A stretch of DNA of 62,499 nucleotides, from the IMG/VR virus record IMGVR_UViG_3300042504_001487, positions 1 to 62,499 of that record. One strand, written 5' to 3'. Of this stretch, positions 10,001 to 55,927 are shown one piece after another. The first letter of the stretch is position 1; every line of letters begins with the position of its first letter. This stretch comes from a virus. Its lineage: Duplodnaviria > Caudoviricetes. A program made the position numbers and the translations under genes. Below the pieces are notes generated by a model. The model did no database searches. It was not told where the DNA came from and worked only from the letters and a program-made list of their open reading frames with translations.

Positions 10001-10392
10001 TGATTATTTACGTTCCATCTTCTGCCGCCGAAGTGTTGAGCCGAGAGCTTTGGGCGCTGTCGCGTCCTACCACAGTTAGTCAGCCGGGAGACACCGAGTT
10101 CATGTTTGGCTGGACCGATGACATCGTTGGCCAACGGTGGATTGAGGTGCATGACGACTTCTCCATTGTCATCCATCCAGACGCGGAGCTTGGCGGCATT
10201 GCCGACATTATCCAACCGTGGATCGACGCAGGTCAATTGCCATCCGACACGAACGCGCAACTGGCTGCGCTTCTTGATTCTAAGCGTGGTCAACGTCTGG
10301 TCGTTTATGACGCTTTCCCGCAGCTTTTCAAGGACATGAGCAAGACCTACGAGCAAATGGTTGCCGCTGGGTTATTAACTGAATCCGAATAA
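10000..10392 (+). CDS. Hypothetical protein, possibly a fibre chaperone
   Basis: TAATG-coupled to the previous gene. Confidence 0.6.
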   Translation: MIIYVPSSAAEVLSRELWALSRPTTVSQPGDTEFMFGWTDDIVGQRWIEVHDDFSIVIHPDAELGGIADIIQPWIDAGQLPSDTNAQLAALLDSKRGQRLVVYDAFPQLFKDMSKTYEQMVAAGLLTESE

Positions 10393-24100: not shown

Positions 24101-27100
24101 CATCTACCGTATGCTCGCCAAGGTGATGTCGAAGATGCCAGTGTTTGCCAACATGGATCTGCACGTTGTCGCCGACGGGGACGTGCGTTACGCAGGGGAA
24201 TACTCGTTCTCCAATGGCAGGTCTGCCATCGCGGTCAACCTTCGACAGGTGGGACGCGGTAAGGTTGACGCCCTGGGCACCATCTTGCACGAGGCTCTCC
24301 ACCACCTCACCCTAGCGAAGGTAAGAGATCCACAGAATGCGTGGGAAAACGAGATCATCGACAAGCTCGACACCATCCGTGGGCGGGTGTTGGAATACGC
24401 CCAGCAAAACGGACTCGGTGAGCGGTTCGACTACGAGCTTGACACCGTTGAAGAGTTCATCTCTGCCGTCTTCACCCGTCCCGATTTCCAGAATTTCCTT
24501 GCTTCGATCCCTGACAGCTTTGCCCCCGGCGTAGCCGTCGGCAAGTTCCGCTCGGTGCTCTCTGAAATCTTCCGCCGCCTCGCCGAATTGGTAACTGGTG
24601 AGATGGTTGCCAAGGGCAGCACGATGGAGCAGGCCATGACGAGCGTGCTCGCACTGTTCGAGACCCCGCACCGCGCCGTTGAAACCGGCAAGCTAGAGGC
24701 ACTCAACGCGGCTCGGAGTGGCACAGGTACCGCGAAGAGCTTGGCCGACGACGCGATGGATGCCGAATACATGGCGGCTGTGGAGTCTGGCGACGTTGCC
24801 AAGCAACAGTCGATGGTGGACGCTGCTTACTCTGACTTTGTGCGAAACACCGTCATGTTAGGGGATAGATTCTACCCAGCCACATTCATCCGATTTGGTA
24901 ATCCGCCCACAAATACGGAAGGCTCACAAGTTGCATCCACTGGATTTGACGGCGGTATTCGTGAAAAAGGAGTGTCGGTCATCGGCGCGTGGCATGATAC
25001 AGTTCGTGACAAATACGTCATCCCCACTGGAAGCGAACAGGCCGTGGCTGGAGTTAGCGACTTGGTTGCTCAGAATCGTCCAGTATTTGTCGTTTCTGGC
25101 TCAGTAGTCAAAGATGTTGGTTCTGATACCGAGCCTCTTATGGAGGCGGGAACGGTAAAAACACAGAAGCAGCTTAACTACTCAGACCTTATCGAAGAGA
25201 ATAATCCCGATTTCACCCTCGATGGTGAGCAGTATGATTCTGGAGAAGAGGGAACCAAAAACGCTTACACTGGCGGTAAGGAAAGATGGTGGAAGTCAAA
25301 AGGAATGCCTTTCCCATCCTTAAAAAACATCACCTACAAAGATGGTAAACCCGTCCCGCTTAGCCAGCGGTTTAACCCGAAGAGCAACAGCACGCTCTAC
25401 AGCTTGGCTGAAGAACCCGAGCGTCAGCTTGAAGGTGCCAACATGGGCCGCGCCATGGAGATGCTGGGTGCCAGCCTCTATGCCAAGAACGTGTCTGGCA
25501 CCATCGGCAAAGAGGTGTTCCAGAATGCCGTCGATGCGGTGATGAAGAACGAGAACGGAAAGGCTCGAACGATTTGGTACGGTCAGCCCGACGCAAATCA
25601 TTTTGTCGTGGCTGACACCGGCACCGGGATGAATCCCGACATCATCGTGGACAAGTTCCTGCGGGCATTCGTTTCCGGTAAAGACGTTGGGGCGGGTGGC
25701 GGTTTTGGCCTTGCCAAACTTGCGTTCCTCGGCTCACCGAGAAAATTCAGGATCATCAGCGTAGGCACAAGCACCGATGGCCGGAAGGTGAAAACCACTT
25801 TGCAGGGCACTGGAAAATCGTTCCTGCACTTCAACGAGCATCCCCCACGCATTCGGTTTCAGCCAGACACCGACATCACCTTGGCACCGGGATTCACCAT
25901 GCGCTTTTCATACGAAGACGCACAAGCGTTGCCGACCGGCACCGCTATGGAGTTTGACATGGACGAACCGTATAACGCTTCTTCAGCTATTTCAGCGGGC
26001 ATGGAGTATGTCGAGGGGGTCCAAAGCAGCGGCATCAAGAAAGGCACCACCGATTTAGGATACGGCAACAAGGCCACAGGTGACGAGCTTCTTCGCGAGA
26101 TGGGTTACTCATCTGCACGAAGCGACGAGTCGATGGCAGCCACGCTGTCCAGCAGCAAACCCTACACCGTCCTCCATTCCTTCTCCACTCCTAGCGCCGA
26201 CGTTGACGTGATTGTGAGAGAGGGGGCAAAGATCAAGAAGACACGGTTCTCCTACGTTCCGGTGCTGAACCGATCCATCTTCCAATTCTCTACCAGCTTC
26301 AATCTAAACAACGAAGTCGCCCTTCCCGAAGGCTTGGTGGTGAACATCAAACCCAAAGTTCGGGCAGGCACTGCTGACTACCCATTCACCACCAACCGGG
26401 AATCCGTCACCGATTCGGTCAAAAGGGAGATCGAAAGGTTCTTCCAAGAAGCCGGAGCGCGGGAGAATGCTAAGCTCAACGCCAAGTATGCGAATGCAAT
26501 AGATTCCGCAGCGCCTATCCCGGGCACTGGAAAAGTGCTGCTCGATACCGCCTCTACACTTCCCCCCGCTCTGCTGGACGATCTGACCAACAGTGCAAGC
26601 GTTCAAAGGGCGCTGGGAGATGTGACGAAAATTCAAGACGCTATCTTGTCGATGTTGGGTCGTAAGTTTGGCCCCAAGTTTCAGCGGGCCAAGTTTGCCG
26701 GTTTGATTACTGGGGCGCGTGCGTACGGCGTCCACTTCGGTAAACCAGGAAGCCTTGAACCGACAGCCATCTACCACGACATCTGGAAAGAGATGGCTAT
26801 GGCTGAGGAAGAGTTCAGCGTCTTGCATGAGAACGACCCGGCAGTTAAAGACCTTGGTGTGGATGACCAGATGCGGTTGATGTACGACACCTTCCTGACC
26901 AAAGTGACGGGAGTGGCTTTCCACGAGGCGTTGCATCAAGACGTCGACAGCGAGGGGGAACCCCTTGCCCGAGAACTCACATTCAAGGCTGGCGACATCG
27001 TCGATGCCGTGGTATCTTTGCTCAACAACACGCACACTCAGGATGAAATCAACACCACCATCAATGACCTTATCGCTCAAAAACGCCGAATCGACACTTA

Positions 27101-30100
27101 CGAAGATTCGCAAGCGGCTAGTGAGTTCGTCACTGCTCAAGGCGGATATGATGGATACGCTATGGCCGAACGCGGACAAGCGCAGGGAAGCAGAGAAGGA
27201 TCTGGCAAAGCTGGCGCACGGGTAGGAACTGCTCCCTTCAGCCCAGCCGACGACGCGATGGACGCTGAATACATGGCGGCGGTCGAAGCTGGCGACGTTG
27301 CCAAGCAGCAGGCGATGGTGGACGCGGCGGCGAAGGCGGCTGGATATGACATCGGACCGGTTTACCATGGGACAGAGCAAAAAGGTTTGACCGAGTTCTA
27401 TGGAGGCTGGTGGTCGGACACAAAGAAGGTCGCGCGGGAGTTCGGATCACAACGATATACGGCTTTCTTGAAAGGCCCGTTGGCTGATGGCGACACTTTG
27501 CGCGACCTCTACAAAAAATTTAGAGGAGACGATATTGATCCTGACTCCGGCGAGCCACTCTATGATTCAGAGATTGCTGACATAGCGATGTCTGGCAGCC
27601 GGTTTGGTGACTATGTGCGGGCCGCAGGCTATCAGGGCATCGAAGTGTGGGATGAGAGCAATGCCGAGACAGGGATGGCTTATGCCGTATTTGACCCCAA
27701 CCAAATCAAATCCGCCGACCCCATCACCCGCGACGAGCAGGGCAACGTCATCCCGTTGAGCCAGCGGTTTAACCCGAAGAGCAACAGCACGCTCTACAGC
27801 CCAGCCGACGACAGCGAACCGTTCTACTCCAAGCTGGCGCAAGTAGTTGAGCAGAAGATGCCGAACCGGGCCGATGCCCAGACGATCAAAGGCATCATCA
27901 ACAACACTCAAACCGGCATCAAAGCTGAGGAGATCAAGTGGAGTGGCATCGTGCCGTGGCTAGAAAGCCAGACCGGACCTATCACCAAGCAGGCCGTGCT
28001 TGACTATCTGGCAGCGGATGGGGCAGTGAGGTTGGAGGAAGTGCGGATGGATGACTCCAACGCGGTTTCCGCAGATGAAGCTCGCCAGTACTTTGGGATT
28101 GCCAAGCGGGAGTGGGACGCCATGACGCCCGAGAGCCGTGCCGACATGATCAAAGACGCCTCCGAGCGCAAAAAGCGTGTTCACACCCGCTATCAGCAGT
28201 ACCAACTCCCAGGCGGCGAGAACTACCGCGAGGTGGTGCTGGCGATGCCGTTGCAGTTCCAAAAAACGACACCTTCAAAACTTACGGATCAATACAACCG
28301 TGGCGTCATCACGCAGGCGGAGTATTTCCAACGTCTCGAATCCCTCGTCGAGCCGAGCGGCGGAAACTACACCTCCAGCCACTTTCGCGACGTGCCGAAC
28401 TACGTCGCGCACATGAGGATGAACGACCGCACGGACGCCGAGGGCAAGCCGGGGGCGTTCATTGAGGAGATCCAGAGCGACCGCCATCAGGCGGGGCGTG
28501 AGAAGGGGTATAAAATCAACACTCGGTCCCCAAACACAATCATCAAAGATACCGATAAAGTCCTTGGTGAACTTCGCTCACGAACTGGTGAGTATATTCC
28601 GACTGACGAGCACTGGGCAACCCATCCTGATTTGTCTGCCAAATGGGATGCTTTAACCTCAGAGCTTGAGCAGGCCAGACAAGATGTAGGTCGAGTTCCA
28701 GACGCCCCGTTCCGCACGACATGGCCGCTCCAGATGTTCAAGCGTGCCCTCGCGGACGCGGTGGCCGCTGGCAAGCAGTGGATTGGCTGGACGACCGGCG
28801 AGACGCAGGCAGAGCGGTATGACCTGAGCAAGCAGATCAAAGAAGTGGCTTATTACTGGGACGGTCCCGGAGATCCCGATGGGCAGTTAGTGGCTGTCAA
28901 TCACCAAGGTCAGGAGGTGATGAACCAGCACAGTCTCAAGCCGGATGCATTGGCAGACTACATCGGCAAAGAGACTGCTGAAAAACTCGTCAATGCCCCA
29001 GACCAGAATGGCATGCGCAAACTTTCCGGCCTAGACCTCAAAGTCGGCGGCGAGGGCATGAAGGGCTTCTACGACAACATCCTGCCCAAGGAGATCGGCA
29101 AGTATGTGAAGCAGTGGAGTGGAAGGGTTGAGCAGACGGAGCTTGTCACTGGCGAGACGAAGGTGGACGATTCTGAATGGAAGCGGCGCAACTACCCCGG
29201 AGTCCCGTGGGACGCGGAGATGCGTGCTGAGTATGAACGGCATCAAAAGCCAATCGTAGAAAAAGCCCCAATCTGGCGAGTGGACATCACGCCCCAGATG
29301 AAAGCAGGCGTACGATCCGGTCAAACTCTGTTCAGCCCAGCCGACGAATCCGATCAACGCGAATCTGATGCAGTGCTTGGCGTGATGATGGAGGATGACA
29401 GGTTTGAGGAAGGCGTGAAGATGTACGACAAGGCCAAGCGCAGACAGCTTGGATCACCACCGCAGCCTTCCGCCAACACCAGCACACCGCCAAGGTTCAC
29501 CAACTCTGCTCAGTTCGCAGCAGCCTTTGAAGCGGCGTATCTGCGCGGCGACTTCGACTACTTCTTGGAGGCTCTCAAGCAGGCCGACCGCCACATCTAT
29601 GTGCCGGAGATGAAGAGGTACATCAACGCTTCCAAGCTCGGCGACAAGGACGCCGCAGAACGTCTTGAGTGGTTCCGTCACGCCATCGCTGGCACCATCC
29701 CGGCCAACGTCAAACCGCAGACCAAGACTCCGCCACCACCCCAGCCTTCTTCTGCTGGTGCTCCTCCGGTCGGGATGCCTCCTCCCCCTCCAGCCGCGAC
29801 ACCTCCGCCAAAAGCAGGCGTGTCCAATCGCCCGATGCTGACGTTGAACACGGCGGCAATGGGGATGATCGCCAAGATGCTTGGCGCAAACGTCCGCATC
29901 AACACGCTGCTACGCCGAGCACGGGGCAGAATCAAAATCAGCATGGCTGATGGCTCGAAGATCGAACTGAGCAAGCAACTTTTCAAAGACCCGGTGCAAG
30001 CGGCAAAAACCCTGGCGCATGAGATCGGGCACCTGTTCGACTTCCTGCCCGCCTCGGGATTTGGTAAAAAACTGGCGGGCAGGATAGCCCCTCTCGGGAA

Positions 30101-33100
30101 CTTCCGGAAAGTCTTTGGCGACGACCTTGCCGACTGGTCCATGGACGGCGGTAAGAAGATGAAGCTGAGCAAAATAAATCAGCTAATCATCGACGAGTTA
30201 GTGGGGCTGTCCAAGAAGTGGCGCGGTGACTTCACATACCAACCTGGAACCTACCGCAGCCTTGGCTCGGAGTTGTACGCCGACTTCATCTCTGCCATTC
30301 TCAACGACCCGATGTGGACTGCCAAGAACGCCCCGTATGCCACGCTGGGGTTCTTGAACGCACTGGAGCAGAAGCCCGAGGTCGATCAGGCGTATCAACT
30401 GGTGATAAGTCTTGTCCAAGGCGGATCGCTGTACAAAGCGTTGGCAGAAGCCAACCGGGGCAAATCGACGACGGCTTTGGAAAGACTGATTGCCAAATCT
30501 TCCGCGCTCATGCGAACAAAGAAAGTTCTCAAGGATGCTGCTCGCGGTCTGTATCGCTCGATGTTCGGCAGTTGGCTGCCTACTGCTATCCGTGATGGCG
30601 GTATCTGGAAGTCTTACTGGAAAAGGCTCAAGAATATGGGCACGTCAGGCGATTACAACTGGGCACAAGAAGAGGCTTCGCAGTTTGCTGTGCGCCATAT
30701 CACCCAGTTCGACAACGACATGGCAAAAGCCGTGGGCATTCCTTTGAAGCTGGCAGGTATCGACCCCGAATACCTCCAACGCCTGCAAACCAATAACCGA
30801 ATCATTCACGAACGCCGTCGAGTCGGTAAGCTGATTGAGGAAGATCCAGCGAAAGCGCGACAGCTTTTGAAGTGGATGGTGGACGCAGGATTGCTCGGCA
30901 AAGACGTGCAAGATGAAGTGGACGCCACCCCCGATGACGGACTCTACAAGAAGACAGCCGAGGTAATCTACAAGTTGCACGCCAGCGGCGATGGTTTTGA
31001 GCGGGCTTTGAAAGCCGCAAGGCGCAAAGGCGCTCCCGCCGATGCCGAAAAGGCGCTATACGCCTTCGACGTGTCAGGGTTCATGCTCAACCCCAACGTC
31101 TTCACCATGGAGAGCGCCGAGGCCGACAACGCTGACATCGAGAAAACCCTTGGCCCGGATCAATTTGGCGAGTTGGAGCGTATCAACGAAGGCTACCACG
31201 ACCTCATCAAACGCACCATGGTCCAAGCGTATAAGATGGGGCTGTTCCGCCAGAGCACCTGGGACGACGTGATCGTGCCGAACTTCGGAGTGTATGTGCC
31301 GTTCATGCCGATCAAATACTTCACCGGTTATGTGAAGGGTGGCGTAGGCCCGGCCCGTGTCGGAACTGCCAATGACTTGATGGCACCGCATGTGGTCGGC
31401 ATCAGAAAAATGCACGCGCTCATCAACCGCATGCAGCGACAGAAGCAGGCACTTCTTCTGATTGATGTTTTCAACAACATGGGACTCCACAACGAGTTGG
31501 AACCGGTAGAGGATGAAAACTTCGACCGTCAGAAAGCTGAGGAACTCGTCAAGCAGTCGAAAAACACCATTTCGTATGTGTCCTATTGGGATCGGGGCGA
31601 GTATAAATGGGTTAAAGTCAATGGTACGGATGCAGTGCCGCTGGTGATGAACTCAGACCCAGATGACCTCGCCGCCGTTTACCAGTTGCTGAAAGCCAAT
31701 ACGAGATTGTGGCGGATGAATTTCACCATCTTCTCCATCGCATTCAACGTCGCCAACACTTTGCGCAACATCGCGACCCCTTCCGTGGATGTCGGACCCA
31801 AGGCTGGGTACAAAGCGGCCAAAGAACTCCTCTCCATCTTCCCGCAGATGGGCAAGTGGGTGTGGGCTAAAATGGCTGGCAGAGATATGACATCTATCGT
31901 TGCCGCGTCCATTTCGATAGAACACGCAATGCACAAACCGGGCATGCCCGTGTCGAAAGAACTCCAAGAGTTCTATGACCGTGGCATTCTACAACCCTCA
32001 CCTGACGTGGCGTCTTTGCGTATGACGCAAGAGGAACTCGCACGAAGCGTGATGGGAGCCTTGTCCTCGCCAGAGCTTTTGCTCCATGGGGGGCACAAAG
32101 CGGCCAAGGACTTGAACTGGTTTGACAAAACTTTGAAGCAGTATTTTTACTCGGCGGTGGACGCGCTGAGCTTCCTCGGGTCGGTGTCTGAGGCAGCACC
32201 TAAAATCGCCGCGTATCGGGCGTTGAAAGAAAAAATGGTTCCTGAAAAGATCACAGCAACCAGAGCAAACGGGAAGACTACCGTTACTGGACTCAACCCC
32301 GACGGGACGAGAAAAATGGTGCCCGCGTTCACCGATGCGCAGGCGACATACCTCGCCACGCTCGAAGGCATTCCTCGGCCTGGGGTTGGCGGTTCCGACA
32401 ATGCGTTGTGGGAAATGGTGCTGCTGTTCTTCCGCATTATGGGGCAGTCGTGGCGCAAACACCTCATCATGGCAACGGCTCCCCAGACTCGCGCTGGGTT
32501 CCTCATGAGGCACATGTTGTTCCAGGGTGCGAAGTTCGGCCTGCAAGCCATGGCGGCTAACGGGGTGATTGATTACCTCATCGCTCTTGGAGCAGCGGCA
32601 GCAGCAGGCGGAGATGACGACGACATCGAGAAATACAAACAGGTGGACTGGGCAGAGGCTGTGAGCAGACAATCTGACCACAAACTTAGTCGCGGCGGCG
32701 TTGGCCCCTTGATCTGTTGGGTGCTCCCTGACGGCAGCATTGAGCCGCCCTACGGCCACAAGTCCATCCCAGCAGACTGGGTGCCGATCATGCCCCGCTT
32801 GCCTGGAACCGAGTTTAGCCGTGAACTCGACCCCATGTCCTACTACGCCACGTCGAAGACCATAGCTCCGACGATTGCGCCAGTGAACGACGACGTGTTC
32901 TGGAATGACTACATGCGCGGTCTGGTCAGTCTCAACCCTGCGTTTGATGTCGTCTCCGACGCAATGAGCATTGTGGGACCAACACCGCCACGGGACAGCT
33001 ACCGTGGACGTGAGAAGGTTGAGCAGCGCGTCTGGGACGAAGGCTACATCGCCCGTATGCTGGGCCTTGGGGAACACCACCTCAGATCGTTTGGGATCGG

Positions 33101-33575
33101 GTCGAACCCGTATGACACCCCGTTGCCGGGCGCGTGGAACGTGCTCAAGAAACCGGGCTTCAAAACCCTCCTGTCCAGCGACAACATGGTGGGTGTTCGC
33201 GAGGAACGACGCGCCCGCCGCGAAGACGATCTTACCAGTTCGTTCGCTCAGAACATGGTGGGTGAGAAGTTTGGCACCCTCAAGAACACCTTCAACCGCT
33301 TGAAGGGCAAGGCAACCCCCAGGACCAAGCAAGAGGAAGAGATATACAACATCCTCAAACCCGTCATGTCGAAACAGTTCTATGGCACCCAGAAAAACGA
33401 CGGAATGTACGACGTGTTGCAATCCTACGCCCGCATGAAAGCCCAAGGACTGCAAGACACCCCAGGAGGCAAGTTGCTGAAAGCTGAGGCTGATCAGGTG
33501 GTAAAGGACTTGGAGCAAACTGCCGATGAGCTTCAGAAGCCCCTGGAGTATCTCCGCACCCACACTCTCCCATGA
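21147..33575 (+). CDS. Giant 4142-aa polyvalent ejection-type protein
   Basis: A/G-rich hydrophobic segment; HExxH at ~24288, ~26922 and ~30018; GHKL ATPase motifs (EVFQNAVDA, DTGTGM, GGGFG); ART-like YHGT...YAVFDPNQIKS. Confidence 0.85.
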   Translation: MATSTVTDWDEIEADPDFSSLPQESRVRMFDDWERNFNRTLLEDADLDKVKPEGLNRFAATNAVRRRKLAGEDVSDPDAAAKTWAEQKQAEAKLAQQSLKDYADVEDKKFRLNDARSMPGVDEFGQASPEWEEGVSKASQNLEAAEAKFTPEVREQAKAANEALKGERKIATLQGNIYTDPALVLNKDEFRQQVLDSDASPEAKALKLASFQSEKKRYLDEAANTLTKGDPQIPLAESFPKFLESKGFNLDREMVQQSEGKLDYSPIQKQRELTQEYLTKMQDRGWFRKIGSAIATGVATGMLDIGTQAVGTAAMLTGDEEKSKIAAELSRASGDIGAAQGLEGDMQATGGTFAGGVSRLGTGMAPMLLPGGAVGGIARLAGAGAGAATAAAVGASALTAGAQTAGSQFGEVYDHLRRQGSTHEQAFGVSRNAAVLSGAVTTALTALGGATGVESLLRQGGKDLVKNRLLSALKAVPGGAAAEIAEELPDEYISQLVSAFAKDPNVSPSQVTDEFAANAPDLMLQIAALGGAGAGVGRFRETTTDPAKAREAEFPTAGAPPPLKPQDYENRAAGGQPIFNEEGDVIGVAPPGATPEETAAYREEIRSAAKAAIPEVVEPIDGVDPAITEEMDARLAAGKASGLADQTLAELERQKAAQGAPAPVAEAPTPKRPLANLTDEELEQRIQDSSRLANETAVEGSPDAAFFTNAAEKYRAEKARRVAATTQAATPAPAAETLGVTSPPAPTLETPEGAARNAPKPKATQTASGKKLGDKIVDGENVAIVNEYDQSTPGMPTELTVLEVDGIVDAKSNKVFATRRDMTPNEITVAQEKIRQRNALAKEMGMPQEEIPQPITPQGAAPTTATEGQPMPGGSSEAEWTPTVNAPAAFTASNGQKLVGTVQSIKDGKAVVSFLWNGNENTQTVPVSQLARPVASLTEPPKYQYTQEQNTRKMGKHFPTAPGVYTNYNFRKAFASMAKDTSLSRIYRMLAKVMSKMPVFANMDLHVVADGDVRYAGEYSFSNGRSAIAVNLRQVGRGKVDALGTILHEALHHLTLAKVRDPQNAWENEIIDKLDTIRGRVLEYAQQNGLGERFDYELDTVEEFISAVFTRPDFQNFLASIPDSFAPGVAVGKFRSVLSEIFRRLAELVTGEMVAKGSTMEQAMTSVLALFETPHRAVETGKLEALNAARSGTGTAKSLADDAMDAEYMAAVESGDVAKQQSMVDAAYSDFVRNTVMLGDRFYPATFIRFGNPPTNTEGSQVASTGFDGGIREKGVSVIGAWHDTVRDKYVIPTGSEQAVAGVSDLVAQNRPVFVVSGSVVKDVGSDTEPLMEAGTVKTQKQLNYSDLIEENNPDFTLDGEQYDSGEEGTKNAYTGGKERWWKSKGMPFPSLKNITYKDGKPVPLSQRFNPKSNSTLYSLAEEPERQLEGANMGRAMEMLGASLYAKNVSGTIGKEVFQNAVDAVMKNENGKARTIWYGQPDANHFVVADTGTGMNPDIIVDKFLRAFVSGKDVGAGGGFGLAKLAFLGSPRKFRIISVGTSTDGRKVKTTLQGTGKSFLHFNEHPPRIRFQPDTDITLAPGFTMRFSYEDAQALPTGTAMEFDMDEPYNASSAISAGMEYVEGVQSSGIKKGTTDLGYGNKATGDELLREMGYSSARSDESMAATLSSSKPYTVLHSFSTPSADVDVIVREGAKIKKTRFSYVPVLNRSIFQFSTSFNLNNEVALPEGLVVNIKPKVRAGTADYPFTTNRESVTDSVKREIERFFQEAGARENAKLNAKYANAIDSAAPIPGTGKVLLDTASTLPPALLDDLTNSASVQRALGDVTKIQDAILSMLGRKFGPKFQRAKFAGLITGARAYGVHFGKPGSLEPTAIYHDIWKEMAMAEEEFSVLHENDPAVKDLGVDDQMRLMYDTFLTKVTGVAFHEALHQDVDSEGEPLARELTFKAGDIVDAVVSLLNNTHTQDEINTTINDLIAQKRRIDTYEDSQAASEFVTAQGGYDGYAMAERGQAQGSREGSGKAGARVGTAPFSPADDAMDAEYMAAVEAGDVAKQQAMVDAAAKAAGYDIGPVYHGTEQKGLTEFYGGWWSDTKKVAREFGSQRYTAFLKGPLADGDTLRDLYKKFRGDDIDPDSGEPLYDSEIADIAMSGSRFGDYVRAAGYQGIEVWDESNAETGMAYAVFDPNQIKSADPITRDEQGNVIPLSQRFNPKSNSTLYSPADDSEPFYSKLAQVVEQKMPNRADAQTIKGIINNTQTGIKAEEIKWSGIVPWLESQTGPITKQAVLDYLAADGAVRLEEVRMDDSNAVSADEARQYFGIAKREWDAMTPESRADMIKDASERKKRVHTRYQQYQLPGGENYREVVLAMPLQFQKTTPSKLTDQYNRGVITQAEYFQRLESLVEPSGGNYTSSHFRDVPNYVAHMRMNDRTDAEGKPGAFIEEIQSDRHQAGREKGYKINTRSPNTIIKDTDKVLGELRSRTGEYIPTDEHWATHPDLSAKWDALTSELEQARQDVGRVPDAPFRTTWPLQMFKRALADAVAAGKQWIGWTTGETQAERYDLSKQIKEVAYYWDGPGDPDGQLVAVNHQGQEVMNQHSLKPDALADYIGKETAEKLVNAPDQNGMRKLSGLDLKVGGEGMKGFYDNILPKEIGKYVKQWSGRVEQTELVTGETKVDDSEWKRRNYPGVPWDAEMRAEYERHQKPIVEKAPIWRVDITPQMKAGVRSGQTLFSPADESDQRESDAVLGVMMEDDRFEEGVKMYDKAKRRQLGSPPQPSANTSTPPRFTNSAQFAAAFEAAYLRGDFDYFLEALKQADRHIYVPEMKRYINASKLGDKDAAERLEWFRHAIAGTIPANVKPQTKTPPPPQPSSAGAPPVGMPPPPPAATPPPKAGVSNRPMLTLNTAAMGMIAKMLGANVRINTLLRRARGRIKISMADGSKIELSKQLFKDPVQAAKTLAHEIGHLFDFLPASGFGKKLAGRIAPLGNFRKVFGDDLADWSMDGGKKMKLSKINQLIIDELVGLSKKWRGDFTYQPGTYRSLGSELYADFISAILNDPMWTAKNAPYATLGFLNALEQKPEVDQAYQLVISLVQGGSLYKALAEANRGKSTTALERLIAKSSALMRTKKVLKDAARGLYRSMFGSWLPTAIRDGGIWKSYWKRLKNMGTSGDYNWAQEEASQFAVRHITQFDNDMAKAVGIPLKLAGIDPEYLQRLQTNNRIIHERRRVGKLIEEDPAKARQLLKWMVDAGLLGKDVQDEVDATPDDGLYKKTAEVIYKLHASGDGFERALKAARRKGAPADAEKALYAFDVSGFMLNPNVFTMESAEADNADIEKTLGPDQFGELERINEGYHDLIKRTMVQAYKMGLFRQSTWDDVIVPNFGVYVPFMPIKYFTGYVKGGVGPARVGTANDLMAPHVVGIRKMHALINRMQRQKQALLLIDVFNNMGLHNELEPVEDENFDRQKAEELVKQSKNTISYVSYWDRGEYKWVKVNGTDAVPLVMNSDPDDLAAVYQLLKANTRLWRMNFTIFSIAFNVANTLRNIATPSVDVGPKAGYKAAKELLSIFPQMGKWVWAKMAGRDMTSIVAASISIEHAMHKPGMPVSKELQEFYDRGILQPSPDVASLRMTQEELARSVMGALSSPELLLHGGHKAAKDLNWFDKTLKQYFYSAVDALSFLGSVSEAAPKIAAYRALKEKMVPEKITATRANGKTTVTGLNPDGTRKMVPAFTDAQATYLATLEGIPRPGVGGSDNALWEMVLLFFRIMGQSWRKHLIMATAPQTRAGFLMRHMLFQGAKFGLQAMAANGVIDYLIALGAAAAAGGDDDDIEKYKQVDWAEAVSRQSDHKLSRGGVGPLICWVLPDGSIEPPYGHKSIPADWVPIMPRLPGTEFSRELDPMSYYATSKTIAPTIAPVNDDVFWNDYMRGLVSLNPAFDVVSDAMSIVGPTPPRDSYRGREKVEQRVWDEGYIARMLGLGEHHLRSFGIGSNPYDTPLPGAWNVLKKPGFKTLLSSDNMVGVREERRARREDDLTSSFAQNMVGEKFGTLKNTFNRLKGKATPRTKQEEEIYNILKPVMSKQFYGTQKNDGMYDVLQSYARMKAQGLQDTPGGKLLKAEADQVVKDLEQTADELQKPLEYLRTHTLP

Positions 33576-47553: not shown

Positions 47554-47648
47554 GTTAGTATGTTTTCGGTTTGGTGTTTCTCGGGTCGCCGCGTTGTGCG
47601 GTAGAGGCTGAATATCCACAGAGGATTCTGCGGGTCAACCCCAAAGTG

Positions 47649-49161: not shown

Positions 49162-49821
49162 TTAGCCGAGGTCCACTTCTTTAGCTTGTGCGTCAGGGTC
49201 GGTGTCAACGGCACCGATCTTGATGGCGGCGGCGTGGATGTCGGCGTAATGCTCGGCGGCGATCTCAGACATGGTGTTGTAGTTGAACTTCTTCTGGAAG
49301 TAAGCCTTGAGCTTGAGCTTGCCTTCGTTCGGAAGAGTCTTCACGGTTTCGCGCAAGCGGGATTCGCTGATGGATGGAGCCTCAGGTTCCGGTGCGGGGG
49401 CTGGGGCAGTTTTGGCAGCCTTGGCTTTGACGGGTTTCTCGACGACGGGAGCCGGAGCTTCGGTGACGGCGGCTTTCGAGGGGACGCAGGCAGCGTGGTT
49501 GTTGATGGCTTCGATCAGCGGCCTGATGCAGATGTCGAAGAAGAGGGTGAAGATTTCTTTCATATTGTTGTTTTGTGTTTGGGTGTGTTGTTTTTCATCC
49601 TTCACCGAATTGCCGGTGATTGATTGAAAGTCGAAAGGGAGGGAACGGATAAAGCGGTTGTTGGCGTGATTGTAAAGGCGGAACAACTCGGGCTGTTGCT
49701 GGCAGATGTAGAGGAGTTTGCGTTGAAAAGCGAGGCCACGGGTGTAGCGGTCGCCGTCTGACAACTCGAATCCCCAGTCGTGGGTTTTGAGGAGAGCGAT
49801 GAAGTCGGCGGTCGGTATCAT
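49162..49821 (-). CDS. Hypothetical protein, possibly with internal start at 49563
   Basis: A/C-rich leader before ATG 49563; A/P/K-rich linker. Confidence 0.55.
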   Translation of the reverse strand: MIPTADFIALLKTHDWGFELSDGDRYTRGLAFQRKLLYICQQQPELFRLYNHANNRFIRSLPFDFQSITGNSVKDEKQHTQTQNNNMKEIFTLFFDICIRPLIEAINNHAACVPSKAAVTEAPAPVVEKPVKAKAAKTAPAPAPEPEAPSISESRLRETVKTLPNEGKLKLKAYFQKKFNYNTMSEIAAEHYADIHAAAIKIGAVDTDPDAQAKEVDLG

Positions 49822-52418
49822 GCGTCAGAAACATTGGATGAATTTTCAGACTTATGCAACAACATTTCAACGGGATTTTGACCTTCAAGGCGGTCGGTGC
49901 GTGCCCAAACGTATTGCCGCTCGCCTGCGAGCATGTGCCGTCCGGCTGGCGAGAAGCCCGCGTTGCGGAGAACGTGGGTGAGATACTTCGGAGTGACGTT
50001 CTGAATGCCCTCGGTGACGAGAGCAGCACGCAGCGCACCAAGGGCTACAGCGTTGGGTTGGATCAGGTTGCACTCGTCGTTGTCCCAGATCCTGTTCAGC
50101 ACGGCAGTCACGTCGTCGCTGGTGTCGGCGATCATTTCCTGCAAATAGGTCGTGATCGGTGCCGGACCTGACGGGCGGAACGTCGAACTGATTGTGCGGT
50201 TCTCGAACAGGTGACGGTAGCCGCCTGCGTGAGTGGTAAGCGAGTCGGCGAACCGGCTGAAATACTCCGGGTCTTTGTCCACGATGGCGCGAATCTGCTC
50301 CTTGTGCTGTAGCTTCGATTTCACTACCCACCAGCGGCGACTGTCTTCACCCACCACGATGGCGTCGTGATGGTTGGTGAAGGCCATGTAGTTCGTGCGG
50401 TTCTGGATGTTGCGCGTGTTCTTGTTGCGTTCGTTGACGGGCAAGTAGTCGTTGGTGATCGGCTCTTTCAGGGTGTTCATCAACTCGTGACGGTTCTGCC
50501 CGGCCACGCGGAGTTCTTCAATGCAAACGACTTGACTGCCGAAGGCCCAGTCGTTCCAGCCTTTCTTGATGGTGTCCGAGTTGATCAATCGCGTGTTGTC
50601 GAGTCCCAGAATGGCGCGGATGACGCCGAACAGGAGAGTCTTGCCGCAACCTTCCACCCCCTGCACAAGCAAGGCGTGGCGCACCTTTGAGCCGGGGAAT
50701 TGCGCGTGATAGGCGATCCAGTCGAGCAGGTGGGTGCGATAGGCTGGCTCGGTGATGATGTTGCAGAGTTGTTCGCAAAGCACGTCCTCGGCGTAATTCG
50801 CCAACGATTTGTCGGCTTCGCGGAAGCTGCGGCGGTACAGGTTCACGAACAGTTTGCCTTCTTCTCGCGTGATGATGTCTTCCGGGGCCGACGGGTTGTA
50901 GGTTACGTCGTCCACCGTCTGACACTTGAGGTGGTTGAGCAGGTAGAGCGATGGAAGCACCTTGGGCGTGTTGAGCGTTTGCTCATTGACGTCACGTCCG
51001 ATTGCTTGCAACTCGGCAGCCGTGGGTAGCAGCTTGCGAGCGAAGACGCTGTCGAAGGCCACCTTCTTGTATTCCTGCCGTGTGCGATGCCGCAAAAAGG
51101 TGTCGGTGGCGGCGATATAGACGAACCCCAGAGACCATGGTGGGTGGATCACCTCGGCGGACTCGCTGCGTTTGGCGATGAGCGATTCGCGGAGGCTCTT
51201 CAACTCACGCTTCACGTCCATGAGTGGCAATGGTTGCTGGTAGTCCTGCCGAGACTTCGTCACCAGCGTTTGCAGCAAAGCGCCCTCTTCGATGTGCGAG
51301 AGCAGCGGGGCGGCGGCGATACGGCGCACCCCTTCGTTCATGAGTTGGACTGCGGACTTGCACTCGAACATGATCCAGTTCGACACGGTTTTGAAACTGG
51401 ACTCTTTGACCTTATCGCTGTTCCAACCGCCCTCGACCGCACGCTTGAGCAGTGAACGAATGGTGACGGGCTTGCGGCCTTTGGCCTGTTCTTGGAAGGA
51501 CTTCCACACTGTCCCGGTGTCCTTCTCATCTTCGTACTTGGTGCCGGTGGCGCTCCAGGTGTCGAACAGGGTAAACGCTTCGTCGTCTTGCAGTGCGCCA
51601 AACTGATGCTTCAACGCTGCCGCGATCTCCAGCCAGAGAGGTCGTGAGCAGTCGGCGTCAATGAATGTCAGCGCCTCCTCGATTTGCGCCAAGTCCACGC
51701 CAGCGACGGGGAACTGGAAGAAGGTCAGGAAATCGTCGATGCTGCCGGACGATGGGCCACGGGTCGGTTTGCTGCCCGATACGATTCCCGGCAGCGAGTC
51801 CACGTCGGTAGAGATGTCGTCAGGCTTGCAGCTTCTGCCGCCGAAGTGCATCACCAACACGGGATGCTCCAACTCGGGGTCTTGATCCGCGAACACGGTC
51901 GGTCGGAACATCGGCTGGCATACAATCGCCGACTCGCGCGTGACCTTCGGCAGCCCCAGGAGTTGACCCACCGTCAGCGCGGCGTCGGGGTAACGCTCGA
52001 CCGGAATGTTGTCCGCTTCCACGATGACGCGGATGCGCGGGAACAAAGGCGTTGAAGAGATCGTCTGGTAGGCGGCAAAGTTGAACTTTCCCAACGCTTC
52101 GACCAGCAGGCCCGGATTCTCCACAAAACGCCTTGCGTCGTCGGCGTCGTCGATGTCGAGGATGATGAGGTTGCAAGGACGGGCGTTCTCGATCTTCCGG
52201 CCTTCCCAAGGGGAACGGTCGAACGTGCAAGGCACCACATACCCGACGAGCTTGGCGTTGGCTCGCTCCTTCTTGCTCATCGCATGGTACTCAGCATAGG
52301 TGACGCTGAGAGGCACCGGCAGATTGATGAACTGCTGAATGAAGTCCCGGAAAGTGTTGGCTGGCGATTTGACCAGCGTGTGACTGGTGACGCTCTTACC
52401 TGTGAAGTACTGGGGCAT
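49818..52418 (-). CDS. Primase-helicase (PriCT-2 plus SF3/D5-like ATPase)
   Basis: LDID, WLEIAAALK...FDTWS, GVEGCGKT, IEEL and FTNH motifs. Confidence 0.88.
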   Translation of the reverse strand: MPQYFTGKSVTSHTLVKSPANTFRDFIQQFINLPVPLSVTYAEYHAMSKKERANAKLVGYVVPCTFDRSPWEGRKIENARPCNLIILDIDDADDARRFVENPGLLVEALGKFNFAAYQTISSTPLFPRIRVIVEADNIPVERYPDAALTVGQLLGLPKVTRESAIVCQPMFRPTVFADQDPELEHPVLVMHFGGRSCKPDDISTDVDSLPGIVSGSKPTRGPSSGSIDDFLTFFQFPVAGVDLAQIEEALTFIDADCSRPLWLEIAAALKHQFGALQDDEAFTLFDTWSATGTKYEDEKDTGTVWKSFQEQAKGRKPVTIRSLLKRAVEGGWNSDKVKESSFKTVSNWIMFECKSAVQLMNEGVRRIAAAPLLSHIEEGALLQTLVTKSRQDYQQPLPLMDVKRELKSLRESLIAKRSESAEVIHPPWSLGFVYIAATDTFLRHRTRQEYKKVAFDSVFARKLLPTAAELQAIGRDVNEQTLNTPKVLPSLYLLNHLKCQTVDDVTYNPSAPEDIITREEGKLFVNLYRRSFREADKSLANYAEDVLCEQLCNIITEPAYRTHLLDWIAYHAQFPGSKVRHALLVQGVEGCGKTLLFGVIRAILGLDNTRLINSDTIKKGWNDWAFGSQVVCIEELRVAGQNRHELMNTLKEPITNDYLPVNERNKNTRNIQNRTNYMAFTNHHDAIVVGEDSRRWWVVKSKLQHKEQIRAIVDKDPEYFSRFADSLTTHAGGYRHLFENRTISSTFRPSGPAPITTYLQEMIADTSDDVTAVLNRIWDNDECNLIQPNAVALGALRAALVTEGIQNVTPKYLTHVLRNAGFSPAGRHMLAGERQYVWARTDRLEGQNPVEMLLHKSENSSNVSDA

Positions 52419-52424
52419 GGTCGT

Positions 52425-52829
52425 CTATTCTTCGGCCCAAAGTTCTAAAGTTTTGAGGAATGCTTCTGCGCGTTGCGCTGCTGTGGCATGGAGTATGGGG
52501 AAGCAGGCGTCGTTACTTAATGGCTTCCAGCCGTTCCCGTTATCGTTGCCTGTGATGCGTCCTAGTTCTGAAGCATAGAAGAATCTCTGCGAGTAAGCGG
52601 CATCGTCAGGAAGCAGCATCTCCTCTACTTTCCGCATCTCGTTGAGGTCGTTGAGGTAGTCTGGCAATGGGTCTAGCGGGAAGCACTCCAATTCGTCCAC
52701 GGGGCAAGCGTTCACGCGGTCTGAGTAAGGCTCAGTTCTCCACGGTGCATACCCAACAAGGAACTGTTCAGAGATTCCCTTCCACCCGCAAGCCTCGGCA
52801 ATCGCAATTCTCTGTTTCTCGGGTGTCAT
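52425..52829 (-). CDS. Conserved hypothetical phage protein
   Basis: IAEACGW...LPDYLNDLN...HATAAQRAEAFL. Confidence 0.7.
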   Translation of the reverse strand: MTPEKQRIAIAEACGWKGISEQFLVGYAPWRTEPYSDRVNACPVDELECFPLDPLPDYLNDLNEMRKVEEMLLPDDAAYSQRFFYASELGRITGNDNGNGWKPLSNDACFPILHATAAQRAEAFLKTLELWAEE

Positions 52830-53029
52830 AAATTCAAGTCGCTGATGTTGATCTTCAAAGCCTTGCAGAGTTTCTGCAACGTGGACAACTGAATGCCCCC
52901 ACGCCCGTTCTCGGCATTCCAGATGGTGCCCACAGCCACGCCGGACTTATCTGACAGGTCGGTGATGGTGAGTCCTGTGGACCGGCGCACACGTTGAAGA
53001 TGTTCGCCGGGGGTTTTGGGTTTGCTCAT
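52826..53029 (-). CDS. XRE-family HTH regulator
   Basis: LQRVRRSTGLTITDLSDKSGVAVGTIWNAENG. Confidence 0.88.
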   Translation of the reverse strand: MSKPKTPGEHLQRVRRSTGLTITDLSDKSGVAVGTIWNAENGRGGIQLSTLQKLCKALKINISDLNL

Positions 53030-53066
53030 TTGAATTTCACTATACTGAAACGATGCGGCACGAAGG

Positions 53067-54281
53067 TCAACCCCAAAAGTCGTCAGAGGGTTTTTTGCTC
53101 TCCGGTGCCTTCACACGCTTCGGAAAATAGGCGTACATCGTGTGCCGGGCGGCGTTGACGCGAGTGGCGAGCACCACGTCCACGAAGGCGACCGAGTGGG
53201 TTGCCGTCACCTCTTCCACGAACTTCATCGCGTGTTCCAACGGGATAAACAGCTTCGGCACGCTGTCCTCCAGCACGTCCTCGGCGTAGTCGGTCAACGT
53301 GCCAAGCTGTGACGCTTTGCGAGCGGTTGCGGCCTCGTCGAGGAACAGGGAGAAGCCGTTGCTCTCGTGCAGCATGCGCAGGGTAGCGCGGGGGGCGGCG
53401 GCTCGCATGGCGGCGAGCTTGTCGGTGAATATGGATTTGAAAAAGGTCATGGCTTGGCGGCATGAGTTTGATTCCTTCGTTGATGTTTTCTCTCCCCCGC
53501 TCTGTGCCAGAGCAGGGACGTTCGCTGAATGAATCCGCATCGCAGCGTCTTCGTGGTGTCGCGGTGAGATTTCCGCACCGATGAAGGCACGGCCTGTTCG
53601 TTTTGCTGCCACTCCTACTGTCCCGCTTCCGGCGAATGGGTCGCAGACAGTTTCCCCTGGCGCGGAGTAGAGCCGGACGGCCTTTTCCGCCAGCGAGGAC
53701 GGGAATGGGCATGGGTGATTCACTCGCTCCGGTTGGATGCACCACAGTCCGATTGTCTCTTTTGCCCACCGCTCCACAGTCCAGTCAGGCTTTGCCTTTG
53801 GTTGTCCGGGTTTCAGGAATACCAGCACCGGCTCATACGGGTTTCGGATGCTTGGCGTGTGCGGGTGGTTCATCGCGTAGCCGCCAGCGTGCGCGTTCTC
53901 CGCTGTCGTCCCCTTGGCCCACATGATTTCATCCCTGAACTCCCATCCAGCCGCCGTGATTGCTTCGCGGTATTTGTCGGGGCGGTATTTCTTTGGACGC
54001 TTCCCCCACCACAGCGGGACGTTCCATAGCGCATACGCTCCAGCGCGGCATTCGTCCCACGTCAGCGCGGCCACGTCACGAATCATGCTCCAGTATTCAT
54101 CCTCCGGCACATCGTCCAGATACCCGTCATAGGGCTTCTTTGCGTTGTAGGGAGGCGAGGTTAGCACCATGTCCCAAGGGCCAGTTCCACGCAGCACTTC
54201 ACGACAATCGCCAAGAATCAGCGAACAATCGGATGCAGAGAACCGCGCCATCGCGTCTGTTTCGATTTCGAGAGTTTTCAT
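53067..54281 (-). CDS. Beta-class N4/N6 DNA methyltransferase, in frame with a downstream ORF (ATG 53450) ending SDDFWG
   Basis: TSPPYN, HPCPFP and DPFAGSGT motifs. Confidence 0.88.
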   Translation of the reverse strand: MKTLEIETDAMARFSASDCSLILGDCREVLRGTGPWDMVLTSPPYNAKKPYDGYLDDVPEDEYWSMIRDVAALTWDECRAGAYALWNVPLWWGKRPKKYRPDKYREAITAAGWEFRDEIMWAKGTTAENAHAGGYAMNHPHTPSIRNPYEPVLVFLKPGQPKAKPDWTVERWAKETIGLWCIQPERVNHPCPFPSSLAEKAVRLYSAPGETVCDPFAGSGTVGVAAKRTGRAFIGAEISPRHHEDAAMRIHSANVPALAQSGGEKTSTKESNSCRQAMTFFKSIFTDKLAAMRAAAPRATLRMLHESNGFSLFLDEAATARKASQLGTLTDYAEDVLEDSVPKLFIPLEHAMKFVEEVTATHSVAFVDVVLATRVNAARHTMYAYFPKRVKAPESKKPSDDFWG

Positions 54282-54311
54282 AGGCGCGGTCTCTGATCCG
54301 AAGCGTTATGC
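54220..54311 (+). mobile_element. attC-like integron recombination site
   Basis: R'' AGCGAAC, arm TCGGATGCAGAGAACCGCGCC, loop, arm GGCGCGGTCTCTGATCCGA, R' GTTATGC; two extrahelical bases. Confidence 0.8.
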
Positions 54312-54646
54312 GGAGAAACCATCTCGCGGAGCTTGTTGGCCGTTTGACGGGCATCCTCGATCACACGGCGCATGGCCTCAGCGTTATCACTGCTTCCGAC
54401 GATGTCCGCGATTCCGCCCGTCACGCATTTGGCGCAGAACCCAGAACCCCGCCCACATCCGTCGCACTCCGGACTGAGGCAAGGCCCGAACGTGCTCGGC
54501 CATTCCGGATAATTCCGCCAGAGGTCGTACAAGGCCATCTCCAGCATTCGCTCGCGGTTGCCACCGCACTTCCAAGAATAGGAGCGCATAACAGCCGACA
54601 TTTCGCTTTCCAGTTTTTCATTCATGGTCGTTTGATCTTGGGTCAA
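54278..54646 (-). CDS. Cys-rich hypothetical protein (putative second cassette)
   Basis: CLSPEC...CAKC; ends inside the attC-like site. Confidence 0.6.
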   Translation of the reverse strand: MTQDQTTMNEKLESEMSAVMRSYSWKCGGNRERMLEMALYDLWRNYPEWPSTFGPCLSPECDGCGRGSGFCAKCVTGGIADIVGSSDNAEAMRRVIEDARQTANKLREMVSPHNASDQRPRL

Positions 54647-54963
54647 CCCCAGAACTCTTTATCGTCTGAGGTGGCATCGGCTTGCTTGAGCTTCTCACGC
54701 AGCAGGCGCATACGGTAGGCGATCCATTGCGGATGAGCGTTCTGCTTTTGCGCGTTCCATGCGGCGGTTTTGCTGAGGTCGATTTTGCTGTCGAGGATTC
54801 GCGGCAAGCTGCCGCTGCCGGGTTTGCGCGGAGCCTTGGGCTTGCCTTTCTCGGCGCGGTGACGCAGCACGGTGTTTGGGTGGCAACCGACGATCTTGGC
54901 AATCTCTTCGTTGCGCATAGTTTTCCATGAAATGGTTTTCGGGTACTTGATGGGTTCTGACAT
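54643..54963 (-). CDS. HTH DNA-binding protein; ends DKEFWG
   Basis: NEEIAKIVGCHPNTVLRHR. Confidence 0.7.
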   Translation of the reverse strand: MSEPIKYPKTISWKTMRNEEIAKIVGCHPNTVLRHRAEKGKPKAPRKPGSGSLPRILDSKIDLSKTAAWNAQKQNAHPQWIAYRMRLLREKLKQADATSDDKEFWG

Positions 54964-55368
54964 ACGACTTTAGCATGGTTAAACTTTAGCCGTTTGCAAG
55001 TCGTTCCTGACGAACTGGACATCGGTGTCCGGCTCAGTGATGTGGTTGCGTTTGAGAGTGGCGAACTTTAGCCGCCAGTGTTGGCGGTTATCGGTTACAC
55101 GGTCAACGGGTCGGATCAGGCGGGTTTGTGGTCTGGTTTTCATGGTTTAGATTGGCAAGCCGTTGGAATCACATTCGCACACGCTCAGCAGGGTTGAGCC
55201 TGGACGGTCCCAGGCTTGCCGAACGTGCGCGGCGGAGATGCCGGGCAGGGTGATTGTGTATGTTTTGCCGCTGATGCGGTAGGAGATGAGGAAACGGGCT
55301 TTCATGGGTTTGGCTGGCTTGTGCCATCCGTGCCGACCACCGCTTTGCAGCGATGGCCGGGCCGGGTG

Positions 55369-55788
55369 TCACTGAATTTCCTGCAACTGCTTCAGTTCTT
55401 CCGCCGTGAAGAAGGCGCGGAGTCGTTTAGCGAAGGCGGAGCAGCGGCGGAACGTCTGCAACGCTTTGATGCTGTCCGAGTCGTACCCGTATTCTGCGCA
55501 GAAGTCTTCAAAGGTCTCAGGCGTGTACGCATCGCCATTCACGCAAGCGAGCACGTCATACGGGCAAACGGTTTTGATGCCTTTCTGCGCGTCTGCGATG
55601 CTTGACCAGAAGTCGAAGGTCAAGCGTTTGGCGGGCTTGCTGAGCGTCACGCGGTAGTGGTGGCCGTGTTTGCCATCGCTACCCCATGCAGGTGATTTGG
55701 TGTCGCTGAGTGTGGCGCGGAACTTGATCCCGTTGGAGGTCAAGAACTGCTCGGCTTGGATGCCGTATTCGTTGGATGTCGTTTTCAT
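55369..55788 (-). CDS. Conserved early phage protein
   Basis: TFEDFCAEYGYDSDS motif; upstream TTGACA-N17-TAATAT. Confidence 0.7.
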   Translation of the reverse strand: MKTTSNEYGIQAEQFLTSNGIKFRATLSDTKSPAWGSDGKHGHHYRVTLSKPAKRLTFDFWSSIADAQKGIKTVCPYDVLACVNGDAYTPETFEDFCAEYGYDSDSIKALQTFRRCSAFAKRLRAFFTAEELKQLQEIQ

Positions 55789-55927
55789 GTTTTTGCTTTT
55801 GACGTTTTGCGGGTGTCTCCCCCGTTGGTTTGTCAGCGTTTGCCGCTGGAAATTGATATTAGGGTTGAATGTTCACAGTGTCAATGGGTCTATTCAAGCC
55901 ATTAACCCGTCGCAGGCGGGCGGGGCA

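Follow-up and report, generated by a model that had tools for sequence, protein, structure and literature searches.

A probable integron-type methylase cassette with an attC-class folded site in a phage genome, and a family of related phage cassettes coded on the bottom-like strand

Integrons are known as gene-capture devices of bacteria. The attC sites of their cassettes measure about 57-141 nt, and some cassettes of sedentary chromosomal integrons are reverse-oriented; these are mostly toxin-antitoxin cassettes, exceptions with a promoter of their own in sense arrays. In T4-type phages, the promoter-stem-loop (PeSL) cassettes reportedly described by Arbiol and co-workers in 2010 consist of small accessory open reading frames (ORFs), each after a stem-loop, for which shuffling in the form of mini-circles has been proposed. 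The PeSL repeats are almost identical to one another, and their recombination depends on homology. Phage-borne attC sites have been reported recently, in small numbers. Such sites, clusters of attC sites lacking integron integrases (CALINs) and methylase cassettes are already known from phages: Qi et al. 2023 (PMC9892861) describe attC sites and CALINs in virulent phages without integron integrase, name N6_N4 and other methylases among the cargo, report that IntI1 recombined 5/6 attC sites from virulent phages, and note SOS-induced integrase activity. Nivina 2016 gives the names G16 and T23 to the extrahelical bases of attC-aadA7. Here we describe a methylase-bearing segment of the lake phage genome IMGVR_UViG_3300042504_001487 (IMG/VR), of which the whole stretch of 62,499 nucleotides was analysed and is called the window below. 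We judge, with reasonable though not full confidence, that positions 53521-54305 are an integron-type mobile cassette made up of a folded site of the attC class and an orphan N6_N4 methyltransferase gene. The coordinates of its parts and of the neighbouring features are collected in Table 1.

The boundaries of the cassette were established by comparison with other phage loci. Five IMG/VR contigs of one unrelated phage lineage (L002-L006) have 53520-54310 in common with the window at 99.6% identity and share nothing else nearby. Their homology begins at ...AAC/GCTTCGG and ends at ...AGCGAAC/ (a slash marks the joint here and below), which are the two GTT sites as read on the plus strand, and just two differences separate the copies; of these, one is an indel of 1 nt within the 5' arm. 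The cassette has a GC content of 0.59 against 0.45-0.50 in the flanks of L004, and is foreign in that lineage, since the lineage as a whole has 48% GC. A comparison of 49 loci having the neighbouring 602-aa gene also identified a precise empty site, ...CACAGAAC/AAAAAGATC..., in contig L106, which is without exactly the 786 bp. Filled and empty alleles, as well as many other partners, join at G/TT (AA/C) of one box, and the crossover is thus placed there, ambiguous within the shared triplet. The first-pass annotation of the window, made from the letters alone, had proposed a cassette of ~785 bp inserted at G/TT, with the R'' side of its site being the exact reverse complement of 53520-53528. 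Both proposals were borne out: GTTCGCTGA was found at 53520-53528 as quoted, the two ends match at 9/9 positions, and contigs with and without the methylase break at 53520/21 and 54305-54307. On sequence comparison, 53521-54305 is therefore evidently a discrete mobile cassette that has moved between phage lineages.

The insertion point in the L004-type lineage has received more than one kind of sequence. The same conserved sequence is preceded there by at least nine distinct upstream sequences, of which seven end in AAC and one each in ACC and AAT, and the relatives L073 and L086/L087 hold other cassettes of the same kind at that point. The conserved short site itself (L004 3656-3720 and its equivalent in L061-L106) consists of AAC, a 35-nt stretch that contains a small hairpin and an A-run, and then GTTCGCTG; it lies at the 3' end of the convergent 602-aa gene and is a cassette insertion hot spot in this family of 62-66-kb phages. 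The short site may act as an entry site of an attI-like or a minimal attC-like kind.

The folded site of the window cassette is an imperfect hairpin (54229-54301) whose 19 bp fall into blocks of 6+6+7; one arm has two single-base bulges, the loop is 33 nt long, 2-3 nt are unpaired on each flank, and the AAC/GTT triplets of the site lie at 54305-54307 and 54224-54226. It had been annotated as a complete attC-like site at 54220-54311 with AGCGAAC (54220-54226) and GTTATGC (54305-54311); the strings are in place and the hairpin is real. Folded as minus-strand RNA it reached -44.3 kcal/mol (z -3.2), and none of 200 shuffles was as good; as DNA, the plus strand had z -2.5 and the minus strand z -2.7. 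On the gene strand, the bulged bases are C16 and T23 when numbered from the uncut box. The methylase ATG (54281-54279) overlaps the TGA (54280-54278) of the upstream ORF as ATGA at the 5' edge of the loop, in agreement with the annotation's placing of both the start codon and the upstream stop within the site.

Relatives of the methylase 62-91% identical to it sit in arrays. Those from metagenomes at 65-91% identity all have the same layout in different sequence: an upstream ORF ending in AAC, a G and an imperfect hairpin containing the ATG, CTT and GTTCGCT, the gene, and then AGCGAAC and the next unit. A geometric scanner, which describes the window site as [6,b3,6,b3,7], found this site alone across the window, no site in L008, a relative that lacks the methylase, and several in L007, L038 and L046, where the recurring pattern was 6 bp, bulge, 6 bp, bulge. 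Seventeen sites of the phage family were aligned. Their AAC and GTT are invariant (17/17), and the mean column identity of 42% is carried by the boxes. Double (compensatory) changes occurred in 13 of the 14 stem pairs, and the covariation score was 0.43 against 0.16 for shuffles (0/500 reached the observed value) and at most 0.14 for slid partners. A covariance model of the gene strand, R1, was built from these 17 sites. In a larger alignment of 54 distinct sites, which was fitted to R1 and so is biased towards the structure, all 14 stem pairs showed double changes, the score was 0.51 against 0.12, and the AAC/GTT triplets paired in 52-54 of the 54 sites. Sites of the family are 54-137 nt long, with the box consensus RGCGAAC / GTTCGCY.

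R1 had a sole match in the 62.5-kb window, the site of the methylase cassette (70.7 bits, E 1.8e-12); with filters off, the next best match within 52500-55500 scored 5 bits. Over 16 sources comprising 180 kb, 55 sites were recovered at E ≤ 0.001. Arrays were found in L007 with nine sites (E ≤ 0.001), L107 with nine (E ≤ 0.03), L046 with seven (E ≤ 0.0015) and L109 with five (E ≤ 0.002). A plain search of viral contigs for TCAGCGAAC-N20-50-GTTCGCTGA gave 23 loci, which by estimate is roughly the chance level, and among them R1 matched just L033, a true array, and gave one further match at E 0.96. The arrays have phage genes as neighbours: a GpA-type terminase and a lambda-type portal in L007, a family-A DNA polymerase and DUF2800 in L035, and an amidase in L044. 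Their cargo consists mostly of methylases and includes an MT-A70 methylase in L035, three N6_N4 methylases in L038, and two N6_N4 methylases plus one MT-A70 methylase in L044. Directly after the methylase cassettes of L035 (2697-3350, plus strand), a 217-aa protein has the Acb2/Tad1 hairpin domain (PF24729, E 1.8e-6), a fold known from phage sponges for defence signals; this neighbour hints that arrays carry counter-defence genes besides methylases. In L036, R1 also matched 10060-10176 and 10699-10823 on the minus strand, opposite to the array strand of that locus (E 2.6e-6 and 0.044), and these matches may be a second, inverted array.

A second line of evidence is the complementarity between the two ends of one cassette. 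In 31 of 34 non-redundant cassettes, the box after a hairpin complements the end of its own cassette at four or more of the six variable positions (mean 4.9, eight perfect), whereas the two boxes flanking a single hairpin in place did so in 10 of 52 cases (mean 2.4), as did 15% of 2212 unrelated box pairs. Complementary own ends are a hallmark of integron cassettes, and a role of the hairpins in RNA does not explain them.

The link with integron sites proper was examined in the attC site of TJE1 at 1016-1075 (3' end of orf2) and in Shewanella phage M16-3 (MZ568829), whose array is linked to an annotated integron integrase. Both have the same scanner geometry as the phage family, with the bulged arm opposite to the ORFs, and the attC bottom strands of M16-3 (...ATAAC-GCC...CCTT-GTTA...) resemble the gene strand of the family. 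R1 was rerun with filters off on these two only. It gave seven matches in M16-3 at E ≤ 1, 7/7 of which fell within its two cassette arrays on the strand opposite to the ORFs, and the three best matches in TJE1 each lay at the end of one of orf1-orf3, likewise on the strand opposite to the ORFs. A structural link to bona fide attC sites is thus supported in the reverse direction, with the phage-family model serving as proxy. The attC features found in the family are the AAC...GTT boxes, a hairpin conserved in structure, bulges at fixed distances, an unpaired spacer and variable end, crossover in one box, and complementarity of the cassette's own ends.

The genes of the family run against the usual direction. 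Cassettes usually, though not by definition, have the ORF on the top strand and the site 3' of it; in the window, the site is 5' of the methylase and the ATG lies in the loop. The annotation had noted this antisense orientation, and it proved to be the rule for the whole site family: the longer open frame is on the bottom-like strand in 28 of 37 cassettes and on the other strand in seven, every Pfam-named array gene is on the bottom-like strand, and in the arrays the stop of the upstream gene is commonly in the 5' arm of the next site. End complementarity alone does not fix the orientation of the gene, because both orientations predict the same pairs. That the genes are on the bottom-like strand follows from two independent facts which agree: the inserted unit is hairpin plus gene, and on the gene strand it is the 3' arm that bears the bulges. 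In Polaribacter phage P12002L (L050), an attC-like site at 29995-30060 lies between two methylase genes; its bulged arm belongs to the plus strand, while the genes are coded on the minus strand. This published phage CALIN, judged by eye only, may share the inverted layout; the geometric scanner was too noisy for use on its low-GC DNA.

A search of the complete window genome against Pfam gave no tyrosine (PF00589), Y1 (PF01797) or serine (PF00239) recombinase, in line with the annotation's statement that no IntI is encoded. In complete genomes of the second lineage, PF00589 was absent from five, and PF01797 and PF00239 from four; as positive controls, PF00589, PF01797 and PF00239 were detected in 14, 6 and 12 of 14 reference genomes. 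No complete integron, with intI, attI and promoter beside the array, is present in the window or in the five second-lineage genomes, none of which has a PF00589 match. A host integron integrase would be the most economical candidate for the acting enzyme, since no phage recombinase was found and, according to Qi et al. 2023 (PMC9892861), IntI1 recombines phage attC sites.

On this basis, the cassette moves as a unit cut at AA/C on the gene strand (G/TT on the other strand). In a presumed circular intermediate, its last nine bases would pair with the nine beside the hairpin, whereby a complete site would be rebuilt. Unlike in classical cassettes, the gene occupies the strand of bottom-strand geometry, so that the site is 5' of the gene and its loop carries the start codon. 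The upstream ORF stops within the site (ATGA), and the hairpin in the mRNA therefore probably couples the translation of both genes.

The window may represent a captured piece of an array, in which the intact methylase cassette is flanked by a decayed cassette on one side and by half of the following site on the other. It has one intact site and no array, and the segment looks like a fragment captured from elsewhere. The half-site is 94-98% identical to part (the 5' half, in gene sense) of full 131-nt R1-positive sites in L107-L111, which otherwise share nothing with the window; the homology stops exactly after GGGACGTT, and within this family of sites five different sequences follow GGGACGTT at GGGAC-GTT. 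By itself the half-site has no significant fold (z -1.1) and was recognised via the other loci only; loose contig ends fell at 53485/53525 in two of four metagenome runs. The remnant that the annotation had put at 53488-53522 is thus a real half-site, better placed at 53461-53522. It confirms the predicted decay of flanking sites, and the 404-aa read-through ORF the predicted fusion of ORFs. The methylase is fused to the next phage gene because the cassette has no stop of its own and no complete site follows it; residues 278-404 of the fused ORF are a separate gene in the relatives L008-L011. A captured piece lacking the complete next site would be expected to run into the next phage gene in this way.

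On the other side of the cassette, the 122-aa Cys-rich ORF ends in a proper GCATAAC box, and a putative start box, GTTATGCGC, matches it at 5/6 variable positions, for which the background P is ~0.05 per candidate with a few candidates. Relatives of the L008 type break there at AAACG (54630/29). The second cassette that had been proposed in this region was in part upheld: the pair GTTATGCG/CGCATAAC (54585-54592) is present, and a hairpin and an R1 match are absent. The interval 54584-54640 has no fold (DNA -1.8 kcal/mol, z +1.1) and no R1 match, 37 nt between AAC and GTT remaining unfolded, and a second attC at 54586-54636 was accordingly rejected. It is plausible that 54306-54630 is a decayed cassette.

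The whole segment 53452-54628 is an insert relative to L008-L011, which are close relatives of the window (77-88% nucleotide identity). Its left break is at AAACG/ and its right edge at 53451, where the following gene has its ATG. In each of four lake-water metagenome runs a contig connects 53451 with 54629, and both alleles occur on identical flanks, as seen in contigs only. The alleles with the cassette and with the 210 bp are a standing polymorphism in the phage population.

The 9-nt inverted repeat 53520-53528 / 54218-54226 is, taken alone, not above chance, as the same 1.5 kb has one further perfect 9-nt pair and eight perfect 8-nt pairs; it gains significance because independent contigs share the segment and part from the window precisely at the two GTT sites. 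Several results weigh against an integron origin of the cassette. R1 scored low on bona fide attC sites (12-22 bits, E 0.005-0.7, by a rough calibration), and with default filters it gave nothing in TJE1 or P12002L; the attC link accordingly rests on the position and strand of the matches. The family boxes depart from RYYYAAC / GTTRRRY outside the triplet, and the bulge at position 16 of the bottom-like strand is C, not G. Three unrelated hairpins, those of L035-L037, of L007/L038 and of the window, precede methylases which are ~89% identical in nucleotide sequence, with homology beginning at the GTT box; exchange thus takes place between hairpin and gene as well, which single-site bottom-strand recombination does not predict. 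At least one joint of the window insert was made by other means, because its right edge at 53451 is not at a GTT. Other recombination, then, also shapes the cassette regions, as the swapped hairpins and this edge indicate. The methylase had no relative in bacterial genome contigs, and no bacterial integron home or host was identified.

Some of these points would be accommodated if the sites belonged to a different, unrecognised enzyme acting on folded single strands, whether from the phage, of host Xer-type or other, so that attC geometry would be convergent and the cassettes unrelated to integrons. Such an enzyme would fit with the orientation of all named genes opposite to integron practice, with C at position 16, with the additional conserved bases (G after AAC, T in column 16, CA after the first bulge and CTT before GTT), and with the finding that every array contig with Pfam-named neighbours is phage-like while no bacterial genome with the methylase was found. 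However, two of the additional motifs, the G after AAC and the CTT before GTT, are also present in the attC bottom strands of M16-3, the geometry is the same as that of validated attC sites down to the bulge positions, and R1 picks true attC sites only, on the right strand; nor was any tyrosine, serine or Y1-HUH recombinase found in the window or in the second-lineage genomes searched. We regard this explanation as unlikely. The hairpins might instead be RNA elements at gene starts, acting as signals for translational coupling or processing, the cassettes having arisen by ordinary phage mosaicism, through illegitimate or short-homology recombination at conserved gene-boundary sequences under selection, as proposed for PeSL. 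The start codon in the loop, the upstream stop within the site (commonly in the 5' arm of the next site in arrays), the stable RNA fold, the swapping of hairpins before the same gene and the one insert edge at a gene start would all be expected of such elements. They leave unexplained the complementarity of cassette ends, which is absent between the boxes of one hairpin, the one-nucleotide precision of most independent AAC joints, and the bulges fixed at attC positions on one arm; moreover, the arms share no sequence, so that homologous exchange between hairpins is not possible. This account we consider distinctly improbable, more so than that of a different enzyme. Inverted repeats of 9 and 8 nt being common in the same 1.5 kb, a functionless chance hairpin in a coding region with short inverted repeats was also weighed; it is already refuted by the E value of the site, the 55 related sites with covariation, the exact shared boundaries and the empty-site allele, and its probability is negligible.

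The genome which carries the cassette is complete, with direct terminal repeats and ~57% GC, and every gene in the region around the methylase is on the minus strand (Table 1). PF01555 (N6_N4 methylase) was assigned by Pfam to residues 37-246 of the 404-aa ORF (E 3.5e-27), and protection against host restriction is its most likely role. A blastn search of 52400-55800 against 50,697 phage records gave no match. The 122-aa Cys-rich ORF had no relative in viral contigs or in any locus compared, and Rfam, which is without an attC family, returned merely four sub-threshold, snoRNA-like chance matches over the region. Elsewhere in the window, a giant single ORF of 4142 aa (21147-33575, plus strand) presumably codes for a virion or injected protein. 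Three exact gene-strand copies of TGGGGTTGAC were found at 47634-47643, 53066-53075 and 54642-54651 (minus strand); two of them are ORF ends (...FWG-stop), and at 53035-53075 TTGACC is followed ~17 nt on by TATAGT. The copies resemble repeated early promoters lying over ORF ends, with a count at one mismatch of 9 against 5 expected, which is not significant.

Table 1. Positions of the cassette, its folded site and neighbouring features in the window
Feature	Position	Strand	Remarks
attC-type folded site	54220..54311	-	Read on the gene (bottom-like) strand; length 92 nt
Cleaved-side box GCATAAC	54311-54305	gene strand	
Spacer	54304-54302	gene strand	
5' arm	54301-54283	gene strand	
Loop	54282-54250	gene strand	33 nt
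3' arm	54249-54229	gene strand	Bulged T (54242/41) and C (54235)
Spacer	54228-54227	gene strand	
Box GTTCGCT	54226-54220	gene strand	
Mobile gene cassette, 785 bp	53521..54305	-	Bounded at G/TT on + strand (AA/C on gene strand); folded site and methylase domain, without own stop
Cassette terminal box (gene strand TCAGCGAAC)	53520..53528	+	Exact complement of GTTCGCTGA beside the hairpin (54226-54218)
N6_N4 DNA methyltransferase domain, orphan, 254 aa	53520-54281	-	SPPY motif; start codon in the site loop
404-aa read-through ORF	53067-54281	-	Methylase, 23-codon linker and the phage's own 127-aa gene (ATG 53450)
Truncated half-site	53461..53522	-	Keeps the 5' arm and the beginning of the loop from the site of the following cassette; 3' arm and GTT box missing
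Possible decayed cassette with 122-aa Cys-rich ORF	54306..54630	-	Compatible ends, hairpin arms missing
Cys-rich ORF, 122 aa	54278-54625 (longest reading to 54646)	-	ATG 54625; without Pfam family; stop at 54278 inside the methylase site
Inserted segment	53452..54628	.	Replaced by 210 bp (63-aa ORF) in L008-L011
106-aa ORF	54643-54963	-	
Helix-turn-helix protein	52826-53029	-	
Primase-helicase	49818-52418	-	

Beyond this one cassette, we propose, tentatively and at somewhat less than an even chance, that these phages maintain their own pool of bottom-strand cassettes, in which each site would serve both as a recombination site for a borrowed IntI and as an element for translation start and coupling, forming an integrase-less 'phage integron' by which unrelated phages would swap methylases and further counter-defence genes at dedicated hot spots. 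One methylase cassette present in two phage lineages, with the empty site preserved, together with hot spots of varied occupants, amounts to a natural experiment. If host integrases shuffle these cassettes, phages could re-equip themselves rapidly against restriction and other defences, and bacterial and phage cassette pools would be connected. A testable idea also comes from the inverted layout, that of a DNA recombination site doubling as a control element in mRNA, and inverted arrays may be misread by attC searches that assume an upstream gene for every site. In the open-access literature searched, no description was found of cassettes coded as a rule on the bottom-like strand, of attC sites containing start codons or upstream stops, of uncultivated phages whose arrays have as many as nine strong sites, of many-occupant insertion hot spots, or of a natural filled/empty pair that shows transfer from one phage lineage to another.

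Of the known systems, the PeSL cassettes resemble the family in having small accessory ORFs in plastic phage regions with a stem-loop before each. Repeats of the PeSL type were ruled out here, as the hairpin arms are unrelated in sequence and only geometry and a few bases are kept. An element of the IS200/IS605 type was likewise ruled out, PF01797 being absent from the window and from four second-lineage genomes and each unit having one hairpin. Reverse-oriented cassettes of sedentary integrons share with the family a gene antisense to the usual array direction; unlike in those integrons, inversion is the rule in the phage family and the site itself supplies the translation start. Classical cassettes (attC-aadA7, M16-3) have in common with it the AAC/GTT boxes, the unpaired spacer, bulges at 16 and 23 counted from the uncut box, the variable loop, the G/TT crossover, complementary ends, and arrays of short co-oriented cassettes. 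The family differs from classical integrons in having no intI, attI or Pc nearby, in its genes being on the opposite strand, and in its box consensus and C16, and from classical cassettes in that its ORFs are often without a stop of their own and end in the next site. The closest parallels are the phage attC sites and CALINs of Qi et al. 2023 (PMC9892861), which have two or three sites, in the usual orientation (site 3' of the ORF) in TJE1 and PH101. In contrast to these, the present family has the ORF on the bottom-like strand, the start codon in the loop and arrays that reach seven to nine strong sites, and its alleles that naturally occur with and without the cassette show that it has moved between lineages of phages. 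Like the window, those published cases (PMC9892861) have no integron integrase and carry methylases as cargo, and the three sites of TJE1 are matched by R1.

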